Source: Escherichia phage CLB_P2
Sequence record: OL770107
DNA: 64,000 bases
Reading direction: 5' to 3' (one strand)
Shown here: piece by piece, positions 3,155-46,931 of the stretch
How the letters are laid out: the number at the start of each line of letters is the position of its first letter
How positions within the stretch are numbered: the first letter of the stretch is position 1
The notes under the pieces: generated by a model
Told to the model about the DNA's origin: nothing
Databases searched by the model: none
What the model saw: the letters and a program-made list of their open reading frames with translations, nothing else
Program-made: the position numbers and the translations under genes

Positions 3155-3538
3155 ATGAAAATCGGTAAAAAATACGAACTTCGTCCTGAGCGTATCAAAT
3201 CTTTTATCAATATCAGCCCTATCAATAATAATGATATGGTTGATATTATCCAAGAAAACGGTGGATGGTTTGAAGTAAAGGACGTTATGACCTCAGATGG
3301 GGATGAATTTGTAACTAAAATCAAATGTGCTAATGGTGAGGTTTTTAGTTCGGACGGGACACTAGAGGAATATTTTGAATTGCATGAAGATGAGTTCTAT
3401 TGCTTCCGTGAATACGTTGAACAAGATGAAGTTGATGAACCCGTTTCTAAGGCCGGTGTGACCCAAATCCATTGCGTTGTCACTGAACAGAACGTTGACC
3501 AAATCATTGAACTTTTGCAAAAAACTTTTAAGGCCTAA
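3155..3538 (+). CDS. hypothetical early protein (127 aa), paralog of the previous ORF
   Basis: Tightly coupled to the upstream ORF; recognisable shared motifs. Confidence 0.6.
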   Translation: MKIGKKYELRPERIKSFINISPINNNDMVDIIQENGGWFEVKDVMTSDGDEFVTKIKCANGEVFSSDGTLEEYFELHEDEFYCFREYVEQDEVDEPVSKAGVTQIHCVVTEQNVDQIIELLQKTFKA

Positions 3539-5519: not shown

Positions 5520-6379
5520 TGAAACAATACCAATTTTTAATTAAAGATATCCTGGAAAATGGCTACGAAACCGACGACCGTACCGGCACCGGTACAATTG
5601 CACTGTTCGGTACTAAATTACGTTTTGATTTAACTAAAGGCTTTCCTGCAGTAACAACTAAAAAATTAGCATGGAAAGCCTGTATTGCTGAGCTCCTTTG
5701 GTTCCTTTCGGGTTCAACTAACGTTAATGACCTTCGTTTCCGTACTCACGGTTCACTAATTGGCGGTAAAACTATTTGGGACGAGAACTACGAAAATCAG
5801 GCCAAAGACCTAGGTTATCATAGTGGTGAACTTGGTCCGGTATACGGGAAACAATGGCGAGATTTTGGTGGTGTCGACCAGGTTGTAGAAATCATCAACC
5901 GCATTAAAAAGATGCCTAATGACCGACGTCAAATCGTATCTGCATGGAACCCGGCTGAAATCAACCAGATGGCTCTTCCACCGTGCCATTGTTTTTACCA
6001 GTTCAACGTTCGTAATGGACATCTTGACCTCCAGTGGTACCAACGTTCTGTTGACGTGTTCTTAGGATTGCCATTTAATATTGCCTCTTACGCCGCTCTT
6101 GTGCATATTGTAGCTAAGATGTGTAATCTTATTCCGGGCGATTTAGTGTTCTCAGGCGGCAATACACACATCTATTCTAACCACGTTGAACAATGCCAAG
6201 AAGTTCTTCGTCGTGAGCCTAAAGAGCTTTGTGAACTGGAAATTAATTGGCCTGAAGGATTCTCTGATTGGAGCACGACATTACAGCTTCATTGGGTAAC
6301 AGAGCATATGGTCCATGAAGATTTTAAACTCATTGGTTACGAATCACACCCTACCATTAAGGCTAAAATGGCTGTATGA
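5507..6379 (+). CDS. td: thymidylate synthase (290 aa), uninterrupted
   Basis: Thymidylate synthase motifs (DRTGTGT, LPPCH, FYQF, DLGPVYG); a single continuous ORF. Confidence 0.93.
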
Positions 6380-6440
6380 AAATTCAAATTGCTGGTACCT
6401 TATTTTTGGTTATTATGATTGGGCTGAATTTGGTGCTATA

Positions 6441-6734
6441 ATGAGAGTCTGTAGAGTTGTTAACAAGTATAAAGAAGATTTTGATGTCAATATCCAACGC
6501 GGAACCATGTGGGGTAATCCATTTAAAGATGGGACCCGTGAGGAAAACATCAAGAACTTTAAAGAATACTTTATTGCTAAAATAAAATCGGGTGAAATTA
6601 AAAGAGAACATCTTGAAACCCTTAGAGGTATGCGTATAGCGTGTACCTGTAAACCTAAGGACTGTCATGGGGATGTGATAGCCCTGGTTGTTAACAAACT
6701 TTTCAAAGACACGTTCTCATTAGAAGACCTATAA
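6441..6734 (+). CDS. hypothetical Cys/His-motif protein (DUF4326-like), start uncertain
   Basis: Motif GNPF...ACTCKPKDCHGD resembles a small conserved phage domain; first ATG after the td stop is at 6441 but lacks a clear SD. Confidence 0.45.
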   Translation: MRVCRVVNKYKEDFDVNIQRGTMWGNPFKDGTREENIKNFKEYFIAKIKSGEIKREHLETLRGMRIACTCKPKDCHGDVIALVVNKLFKDTFSLEDL

Positions 6735-6743
6735 ATATCAGTC

Positions 6744-6770
6744 CATGCTTAACAGGTTCTATGATAGAAT
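6744..6770 (+). promoter_or_regulatory. candidate middle (MotA-box) promoter for nrdA
   Basis: TGCTTAA at 6746-6752 resembles the MotA box; TAGAAT -10-like element 12 nt downstream; lies in an inverted repeat AGGTTCTAT / ATAGAACCT. Confidence 0.35.
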
Positions 6771-6800
6771 AATTATAGAACCTAACATATTGAGGAAATT

Positions 6801-9056
6801 ATGCAAGTACAAAAAAGTAGCGGTGTATCCCAAGATTTTGACGCACAAAAAATTATTAAAGTTCTGACTTGGGGCTGTGAAGGAACCCAAATCGACCCCT
6901 ATGAATTATACGAAGAAATCAAATCCCATCTTCGTGATGGTATGACCACCAAAGATATCCAGAATCTGACTGTTAAGGTAGCAGCCAACCTTATCTCGGT
7001 TGAAGAACCCGATTACCAATATGTTGCTGCAAAGCAACTGATGTTTGCACTGCGTAAAGAAGTTTATGGGCAGTTCGAACCGCGTAGTTTTATAGACCAT
7101 ATTTCCTATTGTGTTAACGAAGGTAAATATGACCCTGAATTGCTGTCTCGATATTCTGCAGAAGAAATTACTTTCTTAGAATCTCATATCAAGCATGAAC
7201 GCGATTTCGAATTAACCTATGCTGGTGCAATGCAGCTGAAAGAGAAATATCTGGTTAAAGATAAAACAACCGGTAAAATCTACGAAACCCCTCAGTTCGC
7301 TATTATGTGTATTGGTATGGCCTTACACCAAGACGAGCCAGGTAACCGTTTAGCACATATTATTCGTTTTTATGACGCTGTAAGTACTCGTCAGGTTTCG
7401 TTGCCTACTCCTATTATGGCAGGAGCACGTACTCCAACCCGTCAATTTAGTTCTTGTGTGGTTATTGAAGCAGGCGACTCGCTGAAATCTATTAACAAAA
7501 CCGCTAACTCAATAATTGAATACATTTCTAAACGTGCAGGTATTGGTATCAACGTTGGTATGATTCGTGCTGAAGGTTCTCGTATTGGCATGGGTGAAGT
7601 CAAGCATACCGGTGTTATTCCATTCTGGAAACATTTCCAGACTGCTGTTAAATCATGTTCACAAGGTGGAATCCGTGGCGGCGCTGCTACTGCTTATTAT
7701 CCTATTTGGCATTTGGAAGTTGAAAATCTGCTCGTTCTGAAAAACAACAAAGGTGTCGATGAGAACCGTATTCGACATATGGACTACGGAATCCAGTTGA
7801 ACGACCTTATGATGGAACGTTTCGGTAAAAATGATTACATCACGTTGTTCAGTCCTCATGAAATGGGCGGTGAGCTTTATTATTCTTATTTTGAAGACCA
7901 AGAACGTTTCCGTGAATTGTATGAAGCGGCTGAAAAAGACCCTAGCATTCGCAAGAAACGTATTAAAGCACGCGACCTCTTTGAATTGTTCATGACCGAA
8001 CGTTCAGGCACTGCACGAATTTATCCTCAGTTTGTTGATAACACTAACAACTTCACACCATTTATTCGTGAAAAGGCTCCTATTCGCCAGAGTAACTTGT
8101 GTTGTGAAATTGCTATCCCGACCACCGATGTGAATAGTCCGGACGCTGAAATCGGGTTGTGTACGCTGTCTGCATTCGTGTTGGATAACTTTGATTGGCA
8201 AGACCAAGACAAAATCAACGAACTTGCTGAAGTACAGGTACGTGCACTTGATAACTTGTTAGATTATCAAAGCTATCCTGTTCCTGAAGCTTTGAAGGCT
8301 AAGAAACGTCGTAACCTGGGTGTAGGTGTTACGAACTACGCCGCATGGTTAGCAAGCAACTTTGCTTCTTATGAAGATGCAAACGATTTAACTCACGAAT
8401 TGTTTGAGAGATTACAGTATGGACTTATCCGAGCATCAATCAAGTTGGCCGAAGAAAAAGGGCCTTGCGAGTATTATTCAGACACTAAATGGTCTCGAGG
8501 CGAGCTTCCTATCGACTGGTACAATAAAAAGATTGACCAAATCGCAGCCCCAAACTATGTTTGTGACTGGTCGTCGTTGCGGGAAGACTTGGCTAAACAT
8601 GGCATCCGTAATAGCACATTATCAGCACTTATGCCATGCGAGTCAAGCAGCCAAGTTTCCAACTCTACAAACGGTATCGAACCTCCGCGTGGTCCGGTAA
8701 GTATTAAAGAATCTAAAGAAGGTAACTTCCGTCAGGTAGTTCCTAATGTAGAACATAACCAAGGCCTCTATGATTACGCTTGGAGCCTCGCTAAGAAAGG
8801 TAATAAACCTTATCTTACCCAAGTAGCAATTATGTTGAAATGGGTTTGCCAATCTGCATCAGCGAATACGTATTACGACCCTCAGAACTATGAGAAAGGA
8901 AAAGTTCCTATGTCAGTAATGCTTGATGACCTGTTATATTTCTGGTACTTTGGTGGTAAGAACCTTTATTATCATAATACCCGTGATGGCTCTGGTACTG
9001 ACGATTACGAAATCGAAACTCCTAAAGCCGATGATTGCGCAGCTTGTAAGCTTTAA
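6801..9056 (+). CDS. nrdA: ribonucleotide reductase large subunit (751 aa)
   Basis: Class Ia RNR alpha features (N-terminal ATP-cone region, catalytic CE...NLC and C-terminal Cys pair), length and position. Confidence 0.95.
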   Translation: MQVQKSSGVSQDFDAQKIIKVLTWGCEGTQIDPYELYEEIKSHLRDGMTTKDIQNLTVKVAANLISVEEPDYQYVAAKQLMFALRKEVYGQFEPRSFIDHISYCVNEGKYDPELLSRYSAEEITFLESHIKHERDFELTYAGAMQLKEKYLVKDKTTGKIYETPQFAIMCIGMALHQDEPGNRLAHIIRFYDAVSTRQVSLPTPIMAGARTPTRQFSSCVVIEAGDSLKSINKTANSIIEYISKRAGIGINVGMIRAEGSRIGMGEVKHTGVIPFWKHFQTAVKSCSQGGIRGGAATAYYPIWHLEVENLLVLKNNKGVDENRIRHMDYGIQLNDLMMERFGKNDYITLFSPHEMGGELYYSYFEDQERFRELYEAAEKDPSIRKKRIKARDLFELFMTERSGTARIYPQFVDNTNNFTPFIREKAPIRQSNLCCEIAIPTTDVNSPDAEIGLCTLSAFVLDNFDWQDQDKINELAEVQVRALDNLLDYQSYPVPEALKAKKRRNLGVGVTNYAAWLASNFASYEDANDLTHELFERLQYGLIRASIKLAEEKGPCEYYSDTKWSRGELPIDWYNKKIDQIAAPNYVCDWSSLREDLAKHGIRNSTLSALMPCESSSQVSNSTNGIEPPRGPVSIKESKEGNFRQVVPNVEHNQGLYDYAWSLAKKGNKPYLTQVAIMLKWVCQSASANTYYDPQNYEKGKVPMSVMLDDLLYFWYFGGKNLYYHNTRDGSGTDDYEIETPKADDCAACKL

Positions 9057-9109
9057 TAAAATCTGATTATAATTGACTCATGGATGAGTCACTAACAAAT
9101 GAGAATAAC

Positions 9110-10249
9110 ATGTCTACAGTTTTTAATACTACCCCGGTTGATGTTTTAGTCGAACCGATGTTCTTTGGTTCAGGATTGGGTATTGCTCGTTACGATATCC
9201 AACGTCATAAAGTATTCGAAGAGCTTTGTGAAAAGCAGTTGAGTTTCTTCTGGCGTCCAGAGGAAGTTAACTTGATGATGGATGCTGCCCAGTTTAATAA
9301 GCTTCCTCAATTCCAACAAAATATTTTTACCAATAACCTGAAGTATCAATCACTTCTGGATAGTATCCAGGGACGTGCTCCTTCTGCTGCGCTCCAAGCA
9401 TTGATTTCAGACCCTAGCCTTGATACATGGGTGGCTACATGGACCTTTAGTGAAACCATTCACTCTCGTTCGTATACCCATATCATGCGTAACCTCTATA
9501 CAGACCCATCTAAGGTATTTGACGAAATTCTATTAGATGAAGCTATCATGAAACGTGCTGAATCTATTGGTCGTTATTATGATGATGTTATTGAGAAAAC
9601 TCGTAAATACCAAAATGCTTTAGAAGAATACCATGAGTTCAGTGAAGGTGTTAAAACCGCTAAATACGAACTAATGCGTTCTCTTTACCTCTGCCTGCAT
9701 GTAATAAACGCATTGGAAGCTATTCGTTTTTATGTATCTTTCGCATGTACCTTTAACTTCCATAAGAATATGGAAATCATGGAAGGTAATGCTAAGATTA
9801 TGAAGTTCATTGCACGTGATGAACAGCTTCACCTTAAAGGCACCCAGTACATTATCCGTCAACTCCAGCTTGGTACAGATGGTGATGAATGGGTTAAAAT
9901 TGCTCAAGAGTGTGAACAAGAAGCAGTTGATATTTTCATGGAAGTTAACCGACAAGAAAAAGAGTGGGCCGCTCACCTGTTCAAAGATGGTACTTGCCCT
10001 GGATTAAATACTCAGAACATGGGTGCTTTTGTCGATTACCTGACAGTTTCTCGTATGAAGCAATGTGGCTTACCATGTCCTATTACTGATGCTCCTACTC
10101 GCCATCCTTATCCTTGGATTCGTGAATACCTGAACTCTGATGCTGTACAGGCTGCTCCTCAGGAAGTGGAAATCAGTTCTTACCTTGTAGCACAAATTGA
10201 TAATGATGTCGATGAAAAAGTAATGGCATCATACAAGAAATATTTTTAA
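9110..10249 (+). CDS. nrdB: ribonucleotide reductase small subunit (about 379 aa), uninterrupted
   Basis: MSTVFN...EPMFFG...RYD aligns residue-for-residue with the E. coli NrdB N-terminus; start taken at that ATG (9110). An in-frame upstream ATG at 9080 lies inside a hairpin. Confidence 0.92.
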   Translation: MSTVFNTTPVDVLVEPMFFGSGLGIARYDIQRHKVFEELCEKQLSFFWRPEEVNLMMDAAQFNKLPQFQQNIFTNNLKYQSLLDSIQGRAPSAALQALISDPSLDTWVATWTFSETIHSRSYTHIMRNLYTDPSKVFDEILLDEAIMKRAESIGRYYDDVIEKTRKYQNALEEYHEFSEGVKTAKYELMRSLYLCLHVINALEAIRFYVSFACTFNFHKNMEIMEGNAKIMKFIARDEQLHLKGTQYIIRQLQLGTDGDEWVKIAQECEQEAVDIFMEVNRQEKEWAAHLFKDGTCPGLNTQNMGAFVDYLTVSRMKQCGLPCPITDAPTRHPYPWIREYLNSDAVQAAPQEVEISSYLVAQIDNDVDEKVMASYKKYF

Positions 10250-10254
10250 GGAAT

Positions 10255-10276
10255 GGGGCTTCGGCCCCTTATTGCT
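10255..10276 (+). terminator. hairpin/terminator after nrdB
   Basis: GGGGC-TTCG-GCCCC followed by TTATTGCT. Confidence 0.5.
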
Positions 10277-10690
10277 ATGAAAGAAATCGCAGATGAATTT
10301 AGCTTTATCAAGTACGTTACACTGGAGCTCCAAACAGATGCTACTATAGCCCCTATCACGGTTCCAAATAAACAAAATGTCATATATGCTATAGCGGTTG
10401 ATGATATACTAGTCTACATCGGGAAGACTAAAAATCTTCGTAAGCGCATCAACTACTACCGAACCGCCATTAATCGTAAGGACCAAACGTCGGATTCGAC
10501 CAAGTCCATTCTGATTCATGAAGCATTAATGGCTGGTAAAAAGGTAGAGTTCTATGCTAGACAGTGCTTTAATCTGTCGATGACTAACGAACTTGGAACT
10601 ATGTCAGTTGAGACCATGTCTCTTGAAGAGCCAATGTTCATAAAGAAATTTAATCCACCTTGGAATACCCAACATAGGATAAAGCAATGA
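10277..10690 (+). CDS. denA: endonuclease II, GIY-YIG family (137 aa)
   Basis: GIY-YIG-like motif (IYAIAVDD...VYIGKTKNLRKRINYY); about 137 aa from the ATG at 10277, close to T4 EndoII; follows nrdB as in T4. Confidence 0.75.
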   Translation: MKEIADEFSFIKYVTLELQTDATIAPITVPNKQNVIYAIAVDDILVYIGKTKNLRKRINYYRTAINRKDQTSDSTKSILIHEALMAGKKVEFYARQCFNLSMTNELGTMSVETMSLEEPMFIKKFNPPWNTQHRIKQ

Positions 10691-11835
10691 TTGAATTATA
10701 TGATAACTTGATGACTTTGGTTAAAAACTCGACTAAATCTAAGTTCTTCTTTAAAGACTTCCAGAGTGCGCTAGGAGTCAACTATCGCATCTTTAGTTAT
10801 AACTATGCATCGTACAGTGATTGGTTGGAAGACGGCGCACTAGAGTGCCGAGGCATTATGTTTGAAATGGACGAGAATGGTCCTGTACGTATCGCTGCTC
10901 GTCCTATGCAAAAGTTCTTTAATCTCGATGAAAACCCACTGACTATTGGTTTGGATTTATCACAAGAAAATATTGATTTGGTTATGGCCAAGGAAGATGG
11001 TTCCTTGATTTCTACCTTCATGGATAGACAATATCTTTCTGTTAAATCTAAAGGCTCTATCCATTCATCGATGGTACATGATTCTTTACGTTTCCTTCGT
11101 CTCCCTGAAAACGAGGCCTTCGCTGCTCGTTTAGAAGAAATTACTAAAGCAGGCTATACATGTAACCTCGAGTATGTTTCGCCTACTAACCGTATTGTGC
11201 TGGCATACCAAGAAACAAACCTTATCTTACTGAACGTTCGTAATAACGAAACAGGTGAGTATATCCCTTACGCTGAACTGTTTAAAGATGGCGCTCTGCG
11301 TAAGCATTTGGTTAAAAGCTATGAACTCGCTGAAGGTGATTTTGTTGACAATATCCGTAAACAAGAGGGTATTGAAGGCTTTATCTTTGTACTTAAAGAT
11401 GGCACGTTCTTTAAACTCAAAACCGCTTGGTATAGCGCACTGCATCATACCAAAGATTCCATTAACAATAACGAACGTTTGTTTGAAGTTGTAGTGGCTG
11501 GTGGAACCGATGACCTCCGAGGTTTGTTCAGTACTGATTCATTTGCTATTGAGAAAATCAATGCATTTGAACGTATTCATTTAGACTACTTAGAACAGTC
11601 CTTGGCTTTGTTAGAAGCAGCATATTCTCAGCTCAAGGGTCGTGACCGTAAAGACTACGCTGTTACCGGTCAGTTAATCCTCAAAGACTTCCCAGGGCTG
11701 TTCTCTATTCTTATGCAGGCGTACGTAGGCGGTATTAATTATGATACGGTCGTAGACCAGATTAACTCTGTGTTCTTGAAAAATCATAAGGCCCAAATCC
11801 CTGAAAAATATTTGAAAGAAATTGTGATAGAGTAG
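10687..11835 (+). CDS. rnlA: RNA ligase 1 (382 aa)
   Basis: Strong match to remembered T4 Rnl1 (YRIFSYNYASYSDW, ECRGIMFEMD, lysine-containing ligase motif). Confidence 0.92.
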   Translation: MIELYDNLMTLVKNSTKSKFFFKDFQSALGVNYRIFSYNYASYSDWLEDGALECRGIMFEMDENGPVRIAARPMQKFFNLDENPLTIGLDLSQENIDLVMAKEDGSLISTFMDRQYLSVKSKGSIHSSMVHDSLRFLRLPENEAFAARLEEITKAGYTCNLEYVSPTNRIVLAYQETNLILLNVRNNETGEYIPYAELFKDGALRKHLVKSYELAEGDFVDNIRKQEGIEGFIFVLKDGTFFKLKTAWYSALHHTKDSINNNERLFEVVVAGGTDDLRGLFSTDSFAIEKINAFERIHLDYLEQSLALLEAAYSQLKGRDRKDYAVTGQLILKDFPGLFSILMQAYVGGINYDTVVDQINSVFLKNHKAQIPEKYLKEIVIE

Positions 11836-11863
11836 TTTACATCTCCTCATGATGTGTTAGTAT
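11835..11863 (+). promoter_or_regulatory. early-type promoter
   Basis: GTTTAC 11835-11840, TAGTAT 11858-11863, 17-nt spacer, then SD AGGAGAAAA and ATG at 11894. Confidence 0.5.
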
Positions 11864-11893
11864 AGACTTACCAACTAATGAGGAGAAAACAAA

Positions 11894-12394
11894 ATGAATA
11901 TGCAAATGATTACTAACGAAATGGTTGTTAAAGCTTTTGGTGACTCTACTGACGGTATCCAAGTTTTTAAAGGTTCTCGTGCAGTAGGGTACCTAACCGA
12001 TCTTCGTGTTACTTTAGCTAAAAATGCTAAAAAGAAAATTAAGCAAAAAGAATACTCTACCCGTTATGCAGAAGAAAAGCGTGAAGCCATGCCTGAAGCT
12101 GTTAACTCTATGGTTGAGTTTCTCCAAAACAACCTTTCCAAGTATGATGCTGAGGTATTCATTAATATCAGCCAACCTAATGTCAAAATCGCAGGAATCA
12201 CTTTCTATTTGATTTGCGACCCATTAAGCGATAAGTTTAATCGCCTTGGCATTTCGAGTCCTTACCATACCGCTGAAGAATTGTGCGTGATGTTCGAAAC
12301 GTATAAAATCCAGTGTGAAAACCCTAAAACGGTTCTTATCAACTCCCTGTCACGTGATGACATCATCGAGATTATTACCAAATGTCTAAATTAA
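11894..12394 (+). CDS. alc: Alc-like protein (host transcription shutoff), 166 aa
   Basis: Size and position between rnlA and the spanin/pseT cluster match T4 alc; no motif verified. Confidence 0.5.
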   Translation: MNMQMITNEMVVKAFGDSTDGIQVFKGSRAVGYLTDLRVTLAKNAKKKIKQKEYSTRYAEEKREAMPEAVNSMVEFLQNNLSKYDAEVFINISQPNVKIAGITFYLICDPLSDKFNRLGISSPYHTAEELCVMFETYKIQCENPKTVLINSLSRDDIIEIITKCLN

Positions 12395-36640: not shown

Positions 36641-38133
36641 AAATCCACCTGTTTCATTACGTAATTAAATTTCTCGTCAGCATAACGTTGAATACGTTCT
36701 AAGGCATGTTTTAATGCATAATTCAAATGAACATATTTCTTTTTAGCATTTGCTGATTTAGGCTTAACGCCCATGTCGTCTATAATGTCCCAAACTTGTG
36801 CTGTTGATTTAGAAGCATGTTTACGGAGCACACGACCTATTGTCTGGAGTACAATGATTTTGGATTTTACCGGATGCGCAAATACTACATGGTGAAGGTT
36901 CTTAACGGAAATACCGGTAGAGAACACACCGTAACTTGCCACAACAATAATACCCTTACCATTTTCCGCCATTACTTTAAGAGCATTACGAGTTTCTGTA
37001 TTAACTTCACCTGATACGTAATAAACTTCTTTATGTTGCTCTTTAACCATTTCAAAAAGAGTTTTACCGTGCTCGATGTTTTTAAACATCAGGAATACGT
37101 TCTCTTCTTTCTTAGCGAGTTTAACAGCTAAATTAGCAACCCATTTATTACGACGGGTAGCCTTAGTAATGACTTTAATTTCTGATTGGTAATCTTTACC
37201 TTTCATCTTAACAGTGAATTCATCTGGATAACGAAGGAAAATACTGTTTATTTTTAAATCAGTGACCTGTCCTTCTTCCATTAACTGTGAAGTGGATACT
37301 GGCTTAAACACATCACCAAACAAACCCATATATTGCATTAAATTGGCTTTACCGTCTTTTAAAGAACCGGACAAACCGAATTTAAACATACAATTGGTAA
37401 GGCCTTCGATGATGGTAGAAATTGATTTACCTGTTGCCAAATGGCATTCGTCGTTCATAAACATACCAAACTGAGCAAACCATTCTTTAGGTTGTTTAAT
37501 AGCCGTTTGATAAGTTGAAACATAAATCATTGCATCGGAATCACGAGCAGTACCTGAACGAATACCAAGCATAGCAGCTTTAGGGAACAAACGATAATCA
37601 ATGAAGTCATTAATCATCTGGTCGACAAGTGCAGTAGTAGGAACTAAGATAAGAATTTTACCTTCATAGTTCTCAACGTAATATCGACTCAGGAGCGCCT
37701 GAATCAATGATTTACCTGCAGATGTAGGTAAATTCAGAATTGCACGACGTTTTGTCAGACCGTTGTATACGGCTTCATTCTGATACCAATGTGGCTCAAT
37801 CTTGGTAGAACCTGAATAAATCTCTTGTGAAGCTACCCATGAGTCAAAATCTTCACGTGAAATATCTTCTTGTTCAAGAATTCGTGGGTCAATCCAAAGA
37901 GAGTATTCAAACTGGTCAGCGAATTTTTTAATTTGTGGGACTAGACCATACGGAAGTTTACGGTTATAATCTAGAAGACGAATTCTCCCATCCCATTGCC
38001 CGTAACGGTATTTAGGGTTAAATTTATATCCATCAGCTTCAAAGCTGAAATAGTCTCTGAGTTCGTAGAAGGTGGATTCATCACACTCAACACGAACATG
38101 ACTAAAATTATCAAAATGTACTTGAATTTGCAT
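36637..38133 (-). CDS. uvsW: UvsW DNA/RNA helicase (498 aa)
   Basis: SF2 helicase motifs (Walker A PTSAGKS, DECH box, TIGRVLR arginine finger region); size near T4 UvsW. Confidence 0.92.
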   Translation of the reverse strand: MQIQVHFDNFSHVRVECDESTFYELRDYFSFEADGYKFNPKYRYGQWDGRIRLLDYNRKLPYGLVPQIKKFADQFEYSLWIDPRILEQEDISREDFDSWVASQEIYSGSTKIEPHWYQNEAVYNGLTKRRAILNLPTSAGKSLIQALLSRYYVENYEGKILILVPTTALVDQMINDFIDYRLFPKAAMLGIRSGTARDSDAMIYVSTYQTAIKQPKEWFAQFGMFMNDECHLATGKSISTIIEGLTNCMFKFGLSGSLKDGKANLMQYMGLFGDVFKPVSTSQLMEEGQVTDLKINSIFLRYPDEFTVKMKGKDYQSEIKVITKATRRNKWVANLAVKLAKKEENVFLMFKNIEHGKTLFEMVKEQHKEVYYVSGEVNTETRNALKVMAENGKGIIVVASYGVFSTGISVKNLHHVVFAHPVKSKIIVLQTIGRVLRKHASKSTAQVWDIIDDMGVKPKSANAKKKYVHLNYALKHALERIQRYADEKFNYVMKQVDL

Positions 38134-38147
38134 GTCTAATTCTCAGT

Positions 38148-38170
38148 TATAAATATAATTATATTTATAC
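38148..38170. promoter_or_regulatory. divergent late promoters (inh on plus, uvsW on minus)
   Basis: TATAAATA at 38148-38155 on the plus strand and its complement TATTTATA at 38163-38170, each about 30 nt from its ATG. Confidence 0.5.
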
Positions 38171-38188
38171 ACCAACAAGAGACTAATT

Positions 38189-38860
38189 ATGGATACTCAA
38201 TATATTGAAGAGCTTCGTGCACTCGAAGATAAAAAAGAAGCTAAAGCTAAGTTAATCGAATACGGCGAACAGTTCGGTTTAAAACTTAAGAAAACCCGTT
38301 CGTTTGATAATTTGATTATCGATATCTCTGAAGGCCTTAAAGCCCTGGCTGATGAACCACTTCCAGAAACCGAAGGTTTGTCTATTTCTGATTTGATTGA
38401 TGCCGCCGACGAACTCACAGGTGCTAACGAATTTGTTGATGGTGCTGAACCTGCCAAAGAAGAAGCTACCCTATTATTTGATGCCCCTGAAGCGGTAGTT
38501 GAAGTTATTGAGGTAGCCGAACTTCCTAAGGTAGAGATTATTGAAGAAGATGTTCCTTTTGTCGAAGAGAAATTCAAAGAGGCTGTAGCCGAGGTTATTG
38601 AATCTGAAAAACCTGTATTCTCTTTGCCTGAAAACTTTAGTCCTAATCTTTTGCTTATTGGTAAAAACCCTGGTTACTGTACTGTTCCTTGGTGGATTTA
38701 TCAATGGATTTCTGAAACCCCTGATTGGAAAGACCGTCCTAAAGATTTCCAACACCCTTCTGCCCACCAAACATTATTCAGTCTGATTTATTACATCAAT
38801 CGTAATGGCTCAGTATTAGTACGTGAAACACGTAATTCATCTTTTGTAACTTTAAAATAA
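38189..38860 (+). CDS. inh: Inh-like protein (inhibitor of prohead protease), 223 aa
   Basis: Acidic protein located between uvsW and hoc as T4 inh; assigned by synteny and size. Confidence 0.5.
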   Translation: MDTQYIEELRALEDKKEAKAKLIEYGEQFGLKLKKTRSFDNLIIDISEGLKALADEPLPETEGLSISDLIDAADELTGANEFVDGAEPAKEEATLLFDAPEAVVEVIEVAELPKVEIIEEDVPFVEEKFKEAVAEVIESEKPVFSLPENFSPNLLLIGKNPGYCTVPWWIYQWISETPDWKDRPKDFQHPSAHQTLFSLIYYINRNGSVLVRETRNSSFVTLK

Positions 38861-38869
38861 GGGTAAAAT

Positions 38870-40282
38870 ATGGCTTTTACTGTAAGTATAGCCGGCGCTG
38901 CGTCTATTAAAATAGGCGAAAGCGCCAACTACACTGCTACCGCAACAGGTGCAGCTGTAGAAGGAACCGTTACATATGTATGGACCATTGACGGTGCTTC
39001 TAATCCGGAGGCAACCAATGTTTTGAGATATACCGGTGCGGCTCCAGCTGGTAAGAAAGTTTTAAAAGTAGTAGCAACTTCTACTCCGGCCGAAGGCGAA
39101 CCTGAGGTAGCTGAAAAAACTTTTGAAGTTACCGTAGCTAATAAGACCATGACTATTTCTTTGGCCTTAGACCCTACTTCCGTTTCTAAAGAAATTGGCC
39201 AGTCCCAAGTTGTTACTGCTAACGTGACGGGTGCTCCTGCTGGTGCTACAATTGCTTATGTTTGGAAACGTAATACAACTGTAATTTCAGGACAAACTGG
39301 TAAAACTATTACTGTAACCGAAGCAGCAGAAGCAAATTACACGTTGAACTGTGAAGTTACTGTTACCGCCCCTGAATATGACCCGGGTACCGCTACTAAA
39401 GGTGTTGCGGTAACTTTTGTTAAGAAAACTATATCAGGTGCTTCCGTTACTTTAACACCAGCCTCAATTAGTACAGAGAAAGGCTCATCTGCACAGTTTA
39501 AAGCGGATGTAGTTGGCGCTCCTTCCGGCGTAAATGCAACTTATTCTTGGAAGAAAAATGGTTCTATTATTCCAGGCGAAAGCAGTAATATTCTTGCCGT
39601 CGATACATCTACAATAGGTTCTTACTCTATTGAAGTTTCGGTACTCCTAAAAGGTACGGATTATAATGATTTAACCGTTACCAAAACAGGAAGTGTAACA
39701 ATTACTAAAAAGACTATGGCAGGTGTTTCTGTTAATTTAACGCCTGCTTCTATTACTGTCTCTGAAGGAATCCCGGCTTCTTTTAAAACCACGGTAGTCG
39801 GTGCGCCTAGTGGTGCTACTTTTGCTTATTCTTGGAAGAAAGATGGTTCACCTGTTGTGGGTGCTACGGATACATTAGTAATTGACACAAGCGCTGAAGG
39901 TTCACAGGTTATTGAAGTTTCTGTTGTGGTTTCGGCTACCGACTATAATTCTGTGACCGTCACAAAATCCGGTAATGTAACAATTACGGCTAAAGTCGCT
40001 CCTGAACCAGAGGGCGAACTACCTTACGTTCATCCGCTACCAGTTCGTAATTCAGCTTATATTTGGTGTGGTTGGTGGGTTATGGACGAAATTCAGAAAA
40101 TGACCCTTGAAGGCAAAGACTGGAAAACTGACGAACCTGATAGTGAATATTATCTCCATCGTTATACCCTTCAAAAAATGGTAGCCGATTATCCTGAGGT
40201 TGATGTACAGGAATCTCGTAATGGTAGAATTATTCACAGAACCGCTTTGGATGCTGGAATTATTTACGATTACGTTTATTAA
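38870..40282 (+). CDS. hoc: Hoc outer capsid decoration protein with four Ig-like domains (470 aa)
   Basis: C-terminal capsid-binding region (AKVAPEPEGELPYVHPLP...AYIWCGWWVMDEIQKMT.EGKDWKTD...EVDVQESRNG) matches T4 Hoc; four Ig-like repeats each with the Y.W pattern. Confidence 0.92.
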   Translation: MAFTVSIAGAASIKIGESANYTATATGAAVEGTVTYVWTIDGASNPEATNVLRYTGAAPAGKKVLKVVATSTPAEGEPEVAEKTFEVTVANKTMTISLALDPTSVSKEIGQSQVVTANVTGAPAGATIAYVWKRNTTVISGQTGKTITVTEAAEANYTLNCEVTVTAPEYDPGTATKGVAVTFVKKTISGASVTLTPASISTEKGSSAQFKADVVGAPSGVNATYSWKKNGSIIPGESSNILAVDTSTIGSYSIEVSVLLKGTDYNDLTVTKTGSVTITKKTMAGVSVNLTPASITVSEGIPASFKTTVVGAPSGATFAYSWKKDGSPVVGATDTLVIDTSAEGSQVIEVSVVVSATDYNSVTVTKSGNVTITAKVAPEPEGELPYVHPLPVRNSAYIWCGWWVMDEIQKMTLEGKDWKTDEPDSEYYLHRYTLQKMVADYPEVDVQESRNGRIIHRTALDAGIIYDYVY

Positions 40283-40286
40283 TAAA

Positions 40287-40310
40287 GGGCCGCAAGGCCC
40301 TTATTTAGTT
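40287..40310 (+). terminator. rho-independent terminator after hoc
   Basis: GGGCC-GCAA-GGCCC hairpin followed by TTATTTAGTTT. Confidence 0.6.
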
Positions 40311-40367
40311 TATGATAATGTTTCGGGAGATTAAGTTATTGACGAATAATTTTTAATAGGTGGATAT

Positions 40368-40547
40368 ATGAAATTTAACAAAGATATAGGGTTGTTGGTT
40401 TTCTTTATAGTGCTGTTTTTGTTTTCGTTAATTTCATTAACTAGTGGGTTGTTTGCTTCTATATTGGCTCTTTTCACATGCATTAGTTCCTTTTTTGGGA
40501 TAATAGCTACTATAGATAAAATTTTACATACCAAAAAGGGCCCGTAG
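40368..40547 (+). CDS. small predicted membrane protein (about 59 aa)
   Basis: SD AGGTGG 6 nt before the ATG; hydrophobic product (MKFNKDIGLLVFFIVLFLFSLISLTSGLFASILALFTCISSFFGIIATI...); followed by a terminator. Too short for the ORF track. Confidence 0.45.
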   Translation: MKFNKDIGLLVFFIVLFLFSLISLTSGLFASILALFTCISSFFGIIATIDKILHTKKGP

Positions 40548-40560
40548 GCCCTTTATTATT
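40531..40560. terminator. bidirectional terminator
   Basis: GGGCC-CGTA-GGCCC hairpin flanked by an A-run upstream and TTTATTATTTTT downstream; serves the plus small ORF and the minus Hoc-like gene. Confidence 0.6.
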
Positions 40561-41422
40561 TTTCAGGAGGGACGTAAACTAAGTCTTTCCTTTCTAAGAT
40601 GTAGCCATTTCTCGACTCTTGTATCTCTACTTCAGGATACTTAGACAAAAGGTCGGCTACTTTTTGTAACTCACATTTATACTTGTATGGGCTGTTGTTT
40701 ATATCCAAAGTCCAATCTTCTCCCAATCTAACGGCTTCTCTTATTTCGTCCCATACCCACCAACCTATCCACATATACGATTCATTTCTTCCACCGCCAT
40801 ATGGTAAATAAGCATTAAGGTCGTTATCATATATGAAAGGGCACTGCAATACATCATCCCTAGGTTTTATTTCAACTAAAAGTTCTTCAGAAGCAGGGAT
40901 ATATGCTCCTTCGCAGGTCGCTATAGATTTTAATGTATAATCTCCAAATTTATCAGGGTCGTCTATTAATATATCAATATCTTCGTCTTTAGATAATTCT
41001 ACTCCATCTCTATACCATCTACAAATTCTTTCGGCATAAGTGGGTTCCACTCTACACGACGGGCGAAGTGAAACTGTTTCTCCTATATTGGCATATATTA
41101 ATTCCCTAGAGTTTATATCTAGGACTATTCTTCTTGGAAGGGTACCTATTTCAAGTTCTATTTCGTTACTCTTTGTTATTTCACCACTTTTCTTATTTGT
41201 TATGGTCGCATAAAATGTTCCTGCCGCCGGGAATCCTACTTCCCATAAATTTAATTCAAAAGGGTCTTCGGTAGGAAGTTGTGGAATATGGACATCGTTT
41301 TTATACCAATTAATTTCTACATCATCTAGAGTAGAACCGGGTGGTAATACAAACCCGGTATAAAAGGTTACTGTCCTGCCAACCAATTCATATCTAGGAC
41401 CATTTATTTTAAGTACAATCAT
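40556..41422 (-). CDS. second Hoc-like protein: two Ig-like domains plus a Hoc-type capsid-binding C-terminus (288 aa)
   Basis: C-terminus (NESYMWIGWWVWDEIREAVRLGEDWTLD...KYPEVEIQESRNGYILE) parallels the Hoc C-terminal domain; N-terminal region has Ig-like W.Y and Y.C patterns; SD AGGAGG couples it to the upstream collagen-like gene. Confidence 0.75.
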   Translation of the reverse strand: MIVLKINGPRYELVGRTVTFYTGFVLPPGSTLDDVEINWYKNDVHIPQLPTEDPFELNLWEVGFPAAGTFYATITNKKSGEITKSNEIELEIGTLPRRIVLDINSRELIYANIGETVSLRPSCRVEPTYAERICRWYRDGVELSKDEDIDILIDDPDKFGDYTLKSIATCEGAYIPASEELLVEIKPRDDVLQCPFIYDNDLNAYLPYGGGRNESYMWIGWWVWDEIREAVRLGEDWTLDINNSPYKYKCELQKVADLLSKYPEVEIQESRNGYILERKDLVYVPPEK

Positions 41423-41431
41423 TTAACCTCC

Positions 41432-42937
41432 TTAAAACGTGCTCATATTGGTATGGTCTTCGACAGAAAATAAAACTTCAACAGGGATATCTGTAGTCGT
41501 ATTAAGAGGGCCGCCTACAATAAACACAGATACAGTGTAGTATTTTCTAGTATCACGGTCAAATATTTCGTAACGGTTAAATTGTCTTGCACTAGAATAA
41601 GCCAAATCGTCGAATAATTCAGGAGATGATGACCACAACACATTACTCCAGTTGGCACATTCTATTCCGTTTTCATAGTTGGTAAATCTTTTAATATCAA
41701 GCCTATTAGTAAGACCTGCATTAGTAGCCCTTATATGGATGCCTACAGATGAGTACATGCGAACATGAAGAACCATATTAAGGTCCCACAAACGTATTTC
41801 CTTCCACTCTGAAGTGTTCAGAGGCTTATCAAATCTTAAAGAGCCTTTCCAATATCTAGGTGGATAGAATGGGAAAAGTTTATCATATAAAGATTTTAAT
41901 TGAGACTGGGTTAAAGAATCGACATCAAATACTGCATCTTTGCCTGGCGCACCTGCAGGACCTATAGGACCTTGAATACCTTGAGGACCTTGATCGCCTT
42001 TTTCACCTTTAGGTCCTGGATTACCTTGTGGACCCTGCGGCCCTTGAGCACCGGGCGCGCCATCTTCTCCTGGATATCCAGGTCTTCCTTCTTGTACAAA
42101 CAAATGCCAATAATCAACCCATAGGTCTCCACGGCCTGGATAACTATCATTATTTGCTATATTGTCCTGAATACAAATCCAAGAAGACCCTTCGCACTGG
42201 ACTAAATCATTTACATAATAAGGTGTGCCAGGGTCCCAGTTTCCGGCCCAGATAAACCCATTACCATCTTGGCCTGGCGCGCCTTGTGGACCTTGAGGGC
42301 CGGTTGGGCCTGTTGGTCCTTGAGGACCTGGTGCACCGATATTAGCCAATAGCGCCCAAACTCCTTCGCTAGGAGGTATTGTTCCTGTATTAGAACTGAT
42401 GCAAAAATAAGAAGCTCCCTGGTATCCAACTGCATCGTCTTTAGAGTATTGGGTAGATTCATCCCAGGCTCCCTTCCACACCAAACCTGCCGGGCCTATA
42501 GGACCTTGTGGTCCTTGCGGTCCTACTTCTCCTTGGGCCCCTTGTAAACCCTGAGGGCCTTCTTTTCCTGGTGAACCCGGGTCTCCTTTAGGACCTTCTG
42601 GACCTGCTGGTCCTGGTTCGCCCTTTTCTCCTTTAGGACCCGGGTTACCTTGAATACCTTGCGGCCCTGGGTCTCCTTTAGGGCCTTGTGGACCTTCAGT
42701 ACCAGGTGTTAGCATCTCATTAGTTATACCTAAATGGGCCAACGCGCCTTCCCTAGAAGCTTGTTTTATAAATTCAAGTCCATAACTTTGAGAAGAATCC
42801 AACATAGTAGGGTCTAAGGTGCTTTCACTAGTGAGTATGTCTGCAAATTCCAATGATTTATCCTGCGGAACTTCTACTAATGATACGCCTCTAAAGTGAC
42901 CTCTACCGTCATGCCCGTATAATGGATTGTCTGACAT
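41432..42937 (-). CDS. collagen-like triple-helix repeat protein with two carbohydrate-binding-like (CBM5/12-type) modules (501 aa)
   Basis: Three Gly-X-Y runs of about 24, 8 and 17 triplets, separated by W.G.WD...Y...D.V...G.S(Y/W).CI modules; SD CAGGAG before the ATG; first gene of a two-gene minus-strand operon. Confidence 0.8.
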
Positions 42938-42947
42938 AAAATCTCCT

Positions 42948-42977
42948 GTTTACAAGTTAAAATTCTCATGTTACTAT
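42948..42977 (+). promoter_or_regulatory. early-type promoter
   Basis: GTTTAC 42948-42953, TACTAT 42972-42977, 18-nt spacer. Confidence 0.4.
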
Positions 42978-43006
42978 TGAATAGTTCAAATCACAAGAGA
43001 ACTGTT

Positions 43007-43219
43007 ATGGATAAGATTAAAGTACATTTTTTACATGAATCGGGTATGAATTTTATTGATATTGCTAAAAAGATTGGCGGAACTGCCAGAGATATGGCTA
43101 AAGCTTGGGCCGAAGTTGAGAATGCTAAGGCCAAGTTTAAAGCAAGAGAGAAAGTCGTATATCGTAAAAGATTAAACAACAAAAAAGTCAGCGCAAAGCG
43201 CGTTTTTGGTCTAAAGTAA
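43007..43219 (+). CDS. hypothetical small basic protein (70 aa)
   Basis: ATG at 43007 downstream of the promoter -10; the track ORF start at 42968 lies within the promoter. Confidence 0.45.
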   Translation: MDKIKVHFLHESGMNFIDIAKKIGGTARDMAKAWAEVENAKAKFKAREKVVYRKRLNNKKVSAKRVFGLK

Positions 43220-43333
43220 TATGCTTTAAATTTAGGTGTGTTATAATGGGTCTAGGTCCTTCCGTTAAACCATTTGGCTTGGTGACAGAAGATTACTAGC
43301 TCTTCTATTTAATTATATTTATTATGGTGATTT

Positions 43334-44341
43334 ATGTTCAAGAAATATAGCAGTCTGGAAAACCACTACAACAGTAAGTTTATCGAAAAACTCCGTACCA
43401 ATGGTTTGACTGGTGGTGAATGGGTAGCACGTGAGAAGATTCACGGAACCAACTTTAGTTTAATCATAGAACGTGACGCAGTCACATGCGCCAAGCGCAC
43501 TGGCCCAATTCTCCCTGCCGAAGATTTCTATGGCTATGAAATTGTACTTAAGAACTATGCTGATTCTATTAAATCTGTTCAACATCTAATCGAATCCATT
43601 AATTATCAGTCATATCAAATTTATGGCGAGTTCGCTGGTACAGGTATCCAGAAGAATGTGGATTATGGCGATAAAGACTTTTATGTATTTGATATCCGTG
43701 TTACTAAAGAAGATGGTACCGAATCCGTTTTAACTGATACCCTTATGGAAGCTTTCTGTATTATTCATAAGTTTAAGGTTGCTCCGTGCTTAGCCACAGG
43801 TAGCTTTGAAGACCTTATTAAACTGCCGAATGATTTTGATTCTGTTATCCCAGATTACAATTTTGCAGTGGATAACGCAGGTTTAACCATTGCTAACTCA
43901 ACCGATTTTATTCCTAAGGTCGAAGGTAAAGTATTTACGGCTGAAGGCTTTGTACTGAAACCTGATGTTCCTATCTGGCTGCCTAATGGAAATCGTGTAG
44001 CAATTAAATGCAAGAACTCTAAATTCAGCGAGAAGAAAAAGTCTGATAAGCCTATTAAGGCCGCAGTAATATTGTCCCAAGACGATATGGACTTGATGTG
44101 GCAATTCACCGATTATGTGACTGTTAACCGTATTAACAACGTTATCAGTAAGATTGGTGAAGTATCACCTAAAGATTTTGGAAAGGTAATGGGACTGACG
44201 GTCCAAGATATTTTGGAAGAGGCAGCCCGCGAAGAATTAGAATTAACCGATGCAGAAAACCCTGTTGAAGTTAAAAAGCAGCTTATCGAGTGCGTTAAAG
44301 ATACGCTACGAGCTGTGTGGATTGAATTAGTATCCAAATAA
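43334..44341 (+). CDS. rnlB: RNA ligase 2 (335 aa)
   Basis: Near-identical N-terminus to remembered T4 Rnl2 ([20 protein letters not shown]...[32 protein letters not shown]). Confidence 0.95.
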
Positions 44342-44376
44342 ACAATAAAGGGACCTTACGGTCCCTTTTATTTTTC
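44341..44376. terminator. bidirectional terminator (rnlB on plus, gene-24 paralog on minus)
   Basis: GGGACC-TTAC-GGTCCC hairpin flanked by AACAATAAA and TTTTATTTTTC. Confidence 0.65.
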
Positions 44377-45648
44377 TAGTGGTGGAAGTTTAACACCGAG
44401 ATAAGAACTCAACTGACTTTGATTAGCCATTTTGTCCATATCCGAACCATCAATAATGCGAGCTTCTTTATCGTCCTTAGCGACGGTATAAGGGTTTGCA
44501 GTCAATGCATAACGAGCAAGCAATGCTACTGTAGGTTGTAAGCTTTCCGGGTCAACAATAACCTTAAATTCACCTACTGAAGTATCACCTTCTTCATCAA
44601 CCACATCCAAACCTTCCGTATAAGGCGCATAATATAAAGATGCGACCGTCTGTCCTTCACCCATCTGAGCATTTACACCAACAATAACATAATCACATGG
44701 ACTATTCATATCGGCATAAAGAGGTAGACCATTCTTTAATACACCATAAGCCAATTCATCTTGGTCTTCCTTTTTCTCAACCCAACCGGAAGCGGCGAGA
44801 ATAGCAGCACAACGAGAACTAGCTACTGCATAAGTCCCAGCGAAAGAAGTTTGACGTTGGACGGCAGAGTTCATCTCACACATGTAATAATATAATGTAC
44901 GAGCACGGTCCTGGGCATTATCATAACGTGGGTTAGTAAGGTCCAATACGCCCTTTTCAGAAACACCTTGGACTTTAAAACGAGAACTCACCGTAATTAA
45001 TGACTGTAATACGTCCTTATTAATTTCTTCTGCCATTTGAATGCCTAGCAGATTTTCAATGAAATTAGGAGCATTAAATCCGTTTGATTCTAGGTCTTGG
45101 GCCAATTCGACTGTCAACGAAGTTTTCAGTTTACGTGATTTAACTTCAGATTGCCATTTGTCAATACGGAAGCCTGCTTCAGCAATTTCAGGATGGCCTT
45201 GTTCGAATTTAGAAGTAATAGCAGCATCTGATACCATACGAATATGTCCGGCCGCCACTGCTTCAGAAATAACTTCACCGAGGTCGGTTTCCGTGGTTCC
45301 GGCGAAAGGAGATGCTTCTAGAACTTTAAACACTACACTTTCAAACTGGAACATATCGCCGGCTGCATAAGCTGTAGACGAATCGGTAAATTCAGGAATA
45401 TTTTCACGTTCCGACATACCAATCTGACCTGCAAATGTGGCGCCACCAAGATAAGTCATTTTGTCGTCAGGATTAAGTACACGAACCCCGTACAGAGCGG
45501 CCACAGGTTGGCTTGTTTTTTGTTCAGCAACTAGGGCTTTAAAGATTCGTTTATTAGTTGCTTGGGTGTATGAAAGAAGAGCAGGACGGCCAACCGAGTT
45601 GGCAGCCGTCAATGTGGATTCTTTAATTAGGTCTATAATCTTAGACAT
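44368..45648 (-). CDS. gp24-like capsid vertex protein paralog (426 aa)
   Basis: Collinear similarity to the adjacent gp24 along the whole length (about half the residues shared at both termini, e.g. SLQPTVALLARYALTANPYTVAKDDKEARIIDG). Confidence 0.85.
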   Translation of the reverse strand: MSKIIDLIKESTLTAANSVGRPALLSYTQATNKRIFKALVAEQKTSQPVAALYGVRVLNPDDKMTYLGGATFAGQIGMSERENIPEFTDSSTAYAAGDMFQFESVVFKVLEASPFAGTTETDLGEVISEAVAAGHIRMVSDAAITSKFEQGHPEIAEAGFRIDKWQSEVKSRKLKTSLTVELAQDLESNGFNAPNFIENLLGIQMAEEINKDVLQSLITVSSRFKVQGVSEKGVLDLTNPRYDNAQDRARTLYYYMCEMNSAVQRQTSFAGTYAVASSRCAAILAASGWVEKKEDQDELAYGVLKNGLPLYADMNSPCDYVIVGVNAQMGEGQTVASLYYAPYTEGLDVVDEEGDTSVGEFKVIVDPESLQPTVALLARYALTANPYTVAKDDKEARIIDGSDMDKMANQSQLSSYLGVKLPPLEK

Positions 45649-46931
45649 TAATCAGCCTCGTAAATAATTGCTGGAAGTTTAACACCAAGCAGATAGGACA
45701 TATTACTCTGACCGGCCATTAAATCCATATTGGTTGCATCGATAACACGAGCTTCTTTATCGTCTTTAGCTACGGTGTACGGGTTAGCGGACAGTGCATA
45801 ACGAACCATCAGAGAAATAGAAGGCTGTAATGAATCCGGGTCGACAATAACCTTATAAGCACCAACGTGTTCTTGGTCGTCTAAATCCAGGCCTTCTGTA
45901 TATGGGGCGTAGAAAATAGAACCGACAACTTCATTACCACCATAGTTCTCTTTAACACCTACGATAACATAATCCAATGGGCTGTTAACGTCGCAGAACA
46001 GAGGTAATCCATTCAACAAATAACCATAGGCCGTTTCTGGGAGCCAATTATTATCTTCAGGTCTATGTTTTAACCAGCCAGAACCTGCAAGCATTGCAGC
46101 CACACGACTTGAAGCCACAACAAACGTACCTGAATAAGAAGTAGTTTTCTGGATTTCAGAATTCATCTCACAAACAATTTCATAAAGTTTACGTGCAGAT
46201 TCTGGAGCACTATCATAAGTCAAATCGATGATGCCATTATCAGATACACCCGTAACTTTATAGCGTTTGGATACGGTTATTAGAGATTGCAGAACATCTT
46301 TATTAATTTCATCTGCCATTACCGTAGCCAGGAGGTCTTCTAAGAATGCAGGGGCGTCGAAGCCATTTGATTCCATATCCTGTGCTAATTCTACGGTCAA
46401 AGCAGTCTTCAATTTACGGGTCTTAACAGGGGCATTCCATTTATTAACCTGGAATACAGCATCAGAGATTTCTACATCACTCTCTTCAAATTTAGTGGTA
46501 TGGGCTGCATCAGGAACCAAACGACACGTTAATGACACCAAACCTTCTTGAAGAGCATCGGCCAATTCTGTAGCGCTAGTGGATGCGAGTGGGCTTGCTT
46601 GAAGAGCCTTATAAACCACATTCTGATACTTAAAGTAGTCACCCTTGGCAATCGCCTGGGCTTTATCTGTGAGTTCCGGGATAGTTTCACGGTCTTTAGA
46701 ACCAACTTCACCACCATAAACTGCACCGGTTTGGAAACTGAATTCATTATCAGGGGTAAGATATTTGACACCATACAACGCAGCGATAGGTTGGTTTGTA
46801 CGTTGTTCAGCGATGATATCGCGATAAATTAGTTTAGTGGTAGCACGGGTCAAAGCAACAAGATTAGGGCGACCCAATGAGTTGCTGGTAGTAGTTGTTG
46901 ACTCGCGCAGTAATTCGTTAATCTTTGCCAT
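45648..46931 (-). CDS. 24: capsid vertex protein gp24 (427 aa)
   Basis: N-terminus MAKINELLRESTTT.SNS.GRPNLVALTRATTKLIY and C-terminal region match remembered T4 gp24; same length. Confidence 0.92.
   Translation of the reverse strand: MAKINELLRESTTTTSNSLGRPNLVALTRATTKLIYRDIIAEQRTNQPIAALYGVKYLTPDNEFSFQTGAVYGGEVGSKDRETIPELTDKAQAIAKGDYFKYQNVVYKALQASPLASTSATELADALQEGLVSLTCRLVPDAAHTTKFEESDVEISDAVFQVNKWNAPVKTRKLKTALTVELAQDMESNGFDAPAFLEDLLATVMADEINKDVLQSLITVSKRYKVTGVSDNGIIDLTYDSAPESARKLYEIVCEMNSEIQKTTSYSGTFVVASSRVAAMLAGSGWLKHRPEDNNWLPETAYGYLLNGLPLFCDVNSPLDYVIVGVKENYGGNEVVGSIFYAPYTEGLDLDDQEHVGAYKVIVDPDSLQPSISLMVRYALSANPYTVAKDDKEARVIDATNMDLMAGQSNMSYLLGVKLPAIIYEAD

Follow-up and report, generated by a model that had tools for sequence, protein, structure and literature searches.

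The question raised by this locus is what two closely joined genes contribute to a T4-like phage at a position where T4 itself carries no gene. The window analyzed is a stretch of 64,000 nucleotides (nt) from Escherichia phage CLB_P2 (sequence record OL770107; hereafter CLBP2), and the genes in question are col, which encodes a collagen-like fiber protein of 501 amino acids (aa; 41432..42937, minus strand), and hoc2, which encodes a 288-aa paralog of the head protein Hoc (40556..41422, minus strand). A first-pass annotation had suggested that the pair could be an accessory module for capsid decoration or adhesion. From sequence comparison, we see an even chance that Hoc2 is the capsid adaptor for a glycan-binding head fiber of roughly 45-50 nm. 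To the fuller proposal we give slightly less than even credence: a Hoc paralog would have turned into a socket whose outermost immunoglobulin (Ig)-like domain holds a ~45-50 nm collagen-like trimer with carbohydrate-binding modules (CBMs) of the CBM5/12 type, and the two would make up a modular, horizontally exchanged and undescribed two-component head-fiber system.

The two genes, hereafter the cassette, lie between hoc and rnlB as first described, with the amendment that the immediate upstream neighbor of col is gp24.3 (DUF2774; 42968-43219, plus strand) and that rnlB is found beyond it. In T4, where the order is 24, rnlB, 24.2, 24.3, hoc, inh, the space from 24.3 to hoc is free of genes, as the first-pass annotation had supposed. 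An AGGAG ribosome-binding site, read in the sequence, lies 5 nt upstream of the col ATG (42943..42947, minus strand). That of hoc2, AAGGAGG (41427..41433, minus strand), extends into the stop codon of col, as the junction sequence TTT TAA GGAGG TTAA ATG shows, and 9 nt lie between stop and ATG. The overlap suggests that translation of hoc2 is coupled to that of col, as had been proposed from the AGGAGG element. Directly past the hoc2 stop codon is a G+C-rich hairpin with a T-run on the minus strand (40535..40554), which is likely the terminator of the operon and may act bidirectionally.

Col is a segmented protein, and each of its segments is encoded on the minus strand. It begins with an N-domain, the proposed anchor (aa 1-78; 42704..42937), which carries the invariant motif G-H-D-G-x-G-x-(F/Y)-x-G, is kept in every family member at 29-72% identity, and matches no Pfam family. 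There follow a collagen run of 25 Gly-X-Y triplets, recognized by repeat count and by Pfam and PDB matches (aa 79-153; 42479..42703), a first CBM5/12-like module (aa 154-200; 42338..42478), a collagen run of 9 triplets (aa 201-227; 42257..42337), a second CBM5/12-like module (aa 228-283; 42089..42256) and a collagen run of 17 triplets (aa 284-334; 41936..42088), the two later runs being recognized by repeat count. The protein ends in a C-domain of 167 aa, the proposed distal tip (aa 335-501; 41435..41935). The three runs noticed at first pass amount to 51 triplets and match Pfam Collagen (PF01391) with E = 2.3e-23; PDB collagens match col at up to 9.5e-49, and the collagen part of BclA (1WCK) and 6V8I, ‘Fiber Upper gp68’, are matched as well.

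The resemblance to CBM5/12 modules, also proposed at first pass, is upheld by a small margin, as the modules, scanned separately, score 26.9 and 28.3 bits against the Pfam CBM_5_12 (PF02839) gathering score of 26.2 bits (E = 4.9e-11 for col). A profile of 12 modules from the family matches the chitin-binding domain of Bacillus circulans chitinase A1 (1ED7; E = 8e-4) over almost all of its 45 residues, including the conserved W/Y/G positions, and also matches CBMs of chitin deacetylases and of chitinase 60. Unlike that of chitinase A1, the col modules are placed between the collagen segments of a presumably trimeric phage protein and not on a glycoside hydrolase. The C-domain, whose globular nature had likewise been anticipated, has no sequence match in Pfam or the PDB; it is 100% identical in phages dhabil and dhaeg, where it is annotated as ‘hypothetical protein’. 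Its AlphaFold model, made from a 13-sequence alignment (predicted local distance difference test, pLDDT, 83; predicted template-modeling score, pTM, 0.72), has a short helix followed by a ten-strand beta-sandwich and lacks a TNF/C1q jelly-roll head. A Foldseek search of viral models with this domain returned its own family, the C-domain of phage JS10 and a siphovirus collagen-like protein. Although no sequence similarity is detectable between the fiber C-domains of JS10 (C4MZS1) and CLBP2 (20%), the predicted fold is the same in both (TM 0.54). The siphovirus protein, A0A7T7GU87 of E. coli phage vB_EcoS-BECP10, is predicted to have a similar tip domain. The isolated N-domain, C-domain and first Ig-like domain of Hoc2 match no PHROG, though full-length col matches PHROG 5073 (2.5e-89).

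Hoc2 is composed of two Ig-like domains, at approximately aa 1-97 (hereafter d1) and aa 98-190, and a capsid-binding domain at approximately aa 191-288. The Hoc-like C-terminus proposed at first pass is supported by 46% identity to the capsid-binding end of the neighboring canonical Hoc (Hoc1; E = 8e-18) and by a match of Hoc2 to PHROG 1149, ‘Hoc-like head decoration’ (6e-43); the motifs WWVxDEI and QESRNG and all invariant residues of the capsid-binding domain are present. The Hoc2 family profile aligns with residues 106-367 of T4 Hoc (PDB 5VF3 chain Z; E = 9e-37) and also matches RB49 Hoc (3SHS; 2e-10) and Ig domains of CEACAM, titin and sidekick. Because of these matches, the two Ig-like domains first read ahead of the Hoc domain can be accepted, though Pfam Ig_2 by itself stays below its cut-off (17.1 vs 27 bits). 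Hoc2 therefore shares its build with T4 Hoc, namely tandem Ig-like domains followed by a homologous capsid-binding domain, and is likewise dispensable, being absent from phages WG01 and IME341. It differs in forming a separate clade, in a 2-residue insertion in the capsid-binding domain that marks the Hoc2 type, in its fixed two-domain length and in a d1 that is confined to genomes with the collagen-like gene; hoc2 also differs from canonical hoc in lying on the opposite strand, coupled to a fiber gene.

A neighbor-joining tree of the capsid-binding domain places all cassette-linked Hoc2 proteins in one clade together with a 944-aa Hoc of Salmonella phage CGG4-1, and a T4-type clade of the same tree holds T4 Hoc and the Hoc1 proteins of CLBP2, JS10, IME08 and ABTNLsp5. 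Since it falls outside the T4-type clade and is encoded on the other strand instead of in the slot after inh, Hoc2 is a paralog of T4 hoc and not its ortholog. Among the 11 full-length hoc2 genes measured, protein length stays nearly constant at 273-291 aa, as compared with 178-473 aa for Hoc1, and the only shorter forms are those of Cronus (166 aa), which retains d1 and has lost domain 2, and a 132-aa remnant in PspYZU05. Across genera, d1 shares the motifs GPxYxLVG, WYK, PxLPxEDP and LxLWDVxYPAAGxY. In PspYZU05 the Hoc2 type is the sole Hoc at the locus, from which it follows that this type may be able to serve as the only Hoc. CGG4-1 carries three Hoc-like genes, encoding the cassette Hoc2 (285 aa), the 944-aa Hoc with its Hoc2-type capsid-binding domain, and a T4-type Hoc of 279 aa; Hoc-like loci in that genome are at 8515-11349 and 11383-12222 (both minus strand).

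Whether these proteins belong together was addressed by comparison with other T4-like genomes. A tblastn search with the fiber N-domain returned 25 phage records, and all of those with a taxonomy line in the fetched regions are Straboviridae. The fiber gene is full-length in 18 distinct genomes from several genera, and in every one (18/18) it is followed immediately, on the same strand, by a gene with the Hoc motifs WWVxDEI and QESRNG, the two overlapping by up to 11 nt or standing up to 11 nt apart. These carriers are CLBP2, Ec2-ASingh, dhabil, dhaeg, JS10, Esco_phi_B-01 and ABTNLsp5 (Dhakavirus where taxonomy is given); TH15 (Gaprivervirus), CGG4-1 (Gelderlandvirus) and Cronus, IT22 and FBB1 (Roskildevirus for the two checked); and Phynn and Aeromonas phages 65, 65.2, AS4, GomatiRiver_11 and AhFM11. 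Ishigurovirus and unclassified Aeromonas and Pantoea phages are thereby represented among the 18. A tblastn search with Hoc2 d1 found it in 22 of 50,697 phage records, all of which (22/22) also carry the fiber N-domain; d1 is therefore specific to the cassette.

The fiber family itself is very small and closed. When the C-domain was searched exhaustively with HMMER against 1.84 billion representative proteins, 12 true clusters were recovered, ten of them with the full order of N-domain, collagen, CBM, collagen and C-domain, except for one (Phynn) without collagen; of the remaining two, one is truncated and the other consists of a C-domain standing alone. In this exhaustive search the N- and C-domains were never joined to other domains. 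Queries of a word-indexed protein database with the N-domain, the C-domain and an N-domain profile gave nothing or two short collagen-free fragments, and even identical members were not returned; that index probably misses proteins rich in low-complexity sequence. A search of IMG/VR returned three loci only, which appear to correspond to the known isolates CGG4-1, Cronus and PspYZU05. Within the family, the Phynn fiber has neither collagen nor a CBM module, and that of ABTNLsp5 has ~73 triplets and at least two modules. This variable content is in keeping with a stalk whose length can be adjusted while the anchor and the tip at its ends stay fixed.

The two genes also change, move and disappear together. 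In Mantel tests on pairwise identities among 10 taxa, divergence of the fiber N-domain tracks that of Hoc2 d1 (r = 0.66, p = 0.0006; r = 0.60 without the closest pairs) but not that of the Hoc2 capsid-binding domain (r = 0.22, p = 0.07; r = -0.01 without the closest pairs). Such co-divergence fits contact between the N-domain and d1; the capsid-binding domain would keep step with the capsid. The CLBP2 genes are closer to those of CGG4-1 (72% and 61-69%) than to those of JS10, a phage of the same genus (49% and 51-59%), which argues that the cassette moves as a unit. Joint loss or decay of both genes is seen in PspYZU05, where a 49-aa N-domain fragment adjoins the 132-aa Hoc2 without d1, and in IME341, which has no hoc2 and has lost most of col. 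A 96-nt N-domain stub remains in IME341 (3324-3419, equivalent to window positions 42727-42823, at 83% identity), and the cassette was therefore deleted there, hoc2 and most of col going in a single event. Adjacency, co-occurrence, correlated divergence and joint loss strengthen the plausible hypothesis of an accessory module for capsid decoration or adhesion. The first-pass annotation had pictured the two proteins as parallel decorations; here the comparative data suggest two parts of one structure.

The same data bear on a competing arrangement, in which a col trimer binds the capsid directly by its own N-domain and Hoc2, an independent decoration alongside it, contends with Hoc1 for sites. 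It has a precedent in gp12 of phage SPP1, a non-essential, trimeric, collagen-like decoration at hexamer centers with a presumed role in adhesion (PMC7602432, PMC5292684), and it agrees with the place of the cassette among head genes. It leaves unexplained, however, the restriction of d1 to fiber-bearing genomes, and it offers no account of why d1, rather than the capsid-binding domain, tracks the fiber N-domain or why d1 was lost along with the fiber in PspYZU05. We regard direct binding as distinctly unlikely.

In the adaptor arrangement that we infer, both proteins would be expressed late and carried on the virion. Hoc2 would bind the capsid through its C-terminal Hoc-type domain, the probable site by homology to T4 Hoc being the center of the gp23 hexamer, and its conserved N-terminal d1 would point outward. 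Col would trimerize into a segmented collagen triple helix, perhaps with a neck made by the helix that opens the C-domain; the triple helix would be broken by knots of three CBM5/12 modules, and a beta-sandwich knob would cap the fiber. Three of the 78-aa N-domains would then dock onto d1. The rise of a collagen helix is 0.286 nm per residue, and the 51 triplets (153 residues) give the collagen part a length of ~44 nm, so that the fiber would project well past the ordinary Hoc layer. Through the CBM modules, the tip or both, the fiber would adhere, weakly and multivalently, to polysaccharide borne by cells, mucus or particles.

Parts of this design are familiar from other systems. BclA of the Bacillus anthracis exosporium nap and P5 of the PRD1 vertex spike each combine an N-terminal anchor, a variable collagen-like stalk and a C-terminal knob with a separate basal protein, a general design that col has in common with them. 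SPP1 gp12 is small, at about 64 aa, and binds the capsid directly, whereas col, compared by description, has 501 aa, CBM5/12 modules, a large tip domain and a dedicated partner of Hoc type; by analogy, gp12 is nonetheless the closest published counterpart of col. The gp8.5 fibers of phage phi29 are trimeric, non-essential capsid fibers thought to aid attachment (PMC7602432). In contrast to col as envisaged here, they are alpha-helical coiled coils that bind the capsid themselves at quasi-3-fold positions, with no collagen and no adaptor.

Several points weigh against the adaptor proposal. Linkage of two accessory genes that act independently could also yield adjacency, co-occurrence and correlated divergence; the evidence is correlative throughout, the Mantel tests cover a small sample of 10 taxa, and linkage alone could give part of the signal. 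There is a problem of symmetry, as a trimer would be attached to a protein that in T4 is monomeric when bound to the capsid. A full-text literature search yielded neither proteomic nor imaging nor genetic data on any member of the family. Over the 450 nt upstream of col, CLBP2 lacks the canonical late promoter TATAAATA, and the same is true of JS10. Finally, in IME08 col and hoc2 are 1.5 kilobases apart and col is apparently frameshifted after the N-domain: the gene (5915-7311, minus strand) directly follows gene 24b, upstream of hoc2, and the N-domain, a 68-aa open reading frame (ORF) at 7105-7311, does not share a frame with the annotated collagen part (5915-7102), through either a frameshift or a sequencing error.

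The separation in IME08 lends itself to a different explanation, in which col is an accessory tail, neck or baseplate fiber and Hoc2 an independent second head decoration, the two being linked as co-exchanged adhesion genes. PHROG 5073 and many other PHROGs that contain collagen are labeled ‘tail fiber’, and collagen-like segments are frequent in phage tail fibers, as illustrated by the 6V8I match and by the PhiM9 paper (PMC4621102). Such database labels are derived from similarity and not from experiment, and for the label of col itself we found no experimental basis. No part of col matches a Pfam tail-fiber or baseplate-attachment family at E <= 1, and col has neither homology to a characterized tail-fiber or baseplate domain nor a location in a tail-fiber cluster. 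In every genus examined the cassette instead stands among the head genes 23, 24, hoc and inh, and col is translationally coupled to hoc2. Co-variation of the N-domain with d1 but not with the capsid-binding domain, and the finding that d1 is never seen without the fiber gene, are also hard to reconcile with a tail fiber. On balance, we consider a tail location unlikely.

Expression raises the further possibility that the cassette is a non-functional or non-structural passenger, such as a remnant with poor expression, or a protein that is secreted or acts on the host. CLBP2 and JS10 lack the canonical late promoter, as noted above, and the sole promoter-like sites found upstream of col in CLBP2 are a sigma-70-like TTGAAC-18-TATAAT (43312-43341, minus strand) in the rnlB-24.3 intergenic region, ~380 nt upstream of col, and, overlapping it, AATAAATA, which is near the late-promoter sequence (43316-43323, minus strand). 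Both point antisense through gp24.3 towards the cassette. Elsewhere in the family, ABTNLsp5 (at -42) and Phynn (at -75) have TATAAATA upstream of the fiber gene, and in Cronus, FBB1 and IME08 the fiber gene comes directly after the late gene 24. The cassette is also dispensable: its presence varies from phage to phage within Dhakavirus, being cleanly absent in WG01 and deleted in IME341, and remnants persist in PspYZU05 and in AP1, where an 83-aa fiber fragment has no Hoc domain nearby. Against a passenger, both ORFs are intact with strong ribosome-binding sites, the pair keeps all its domains across genera, at 25-70% protein identity, and Hoc2 retains every invariant capsid-binding residue. 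We judge a passenger very improbable.

The surroundings of the cassette are shared with close relatives. Positions 38000-44500 are 100% identical to the Dhakavirus CLBP2 record OZ035781.1 and 95-97% identical to dhabil, dhaeg and Ec2-ASingh. The gene order is uvsW (minus), inh (plus), hoc (plus), hoc2 and col (minus), gp24.3 (plus), rnlB (plus) and two gp24 paralogs (minus), with canonical hoc at 38870-40282 (plus strand, 470 aa). The gap between hoc and hoc2 contains an unannotated, very hydrophobic 59-aa ORF (40368-40547, plus strand; MKFNKDIGLLVFFIVLFLFSLISLTSGLF...) with a GGTGGA ribosome-binding site, flanked by G+C-rich hairpins at 40285-40302 and 40535-40554. The 273-nt segment is 92-100% conserved in dhabil, dhaeg, Ec2-ASingh and IME341 and is absent in JS10 and WG01. 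The tandem genes for the head vertex protein gp24 (44368-45648 and 45648-46931, both minus strand), named 24a and 24b in JS10, are 56% identical, and the stop of one and the start of the next share one base. A tie between the cassette and this duplication was considered and rejected, as WG01 and IME341 have two gp24 genes without the cassette and PspYZU05 has one.

The genes themselves are not new, and the first-pass annotation overrated their novelty. In JS10 (EU863409) the corresponding site is annotated with a ‘tail fiber-like protein’ and another ‘hoc’, dhabil and dhaeg also have the pair annotated (in dhabil as ‘hypothetical protein’ and ‘head outer capsid protein’), and Aeromonas phage 65 has ‘hoc-2, second copy of the hoc gene’ beside a protein ‘similar to collagen-like proteins’. 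The full-text literature search found no study that analyzes the pair, and what is new is its reading as a conserved, mobile two-component cassette in which a dedicated Hoc paralog probably serves a head fiber. Should col prove to be a tail fiber, the cassette would still be a mobile adhesion module, carrying a database label without experimental basis. Hoc is the model for how phages adhere to mucus and the chief platform for display on the T4 capsid. If the adaptor proposal is true, a Hoc type specialized as the anchor of a long, glycan-binding, collagen-like fiber would be a new construction for a capsid appendage, one in which a 3-to-1 or 3-to-3 symmetry mismatch at the capsomer center is also somehow resolved, and display on T4-like heads would gain a ready-made plug-and-socket pair. 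It could also explain differences in retention on mucus, particles and cell surfaces among near-identical therapeutic coliphages, for which Dhakavirus provides a natural comparison of phages that have the cassette (JS10, CLBP2, dhabil) with phages that lack it (WG01, IME341).

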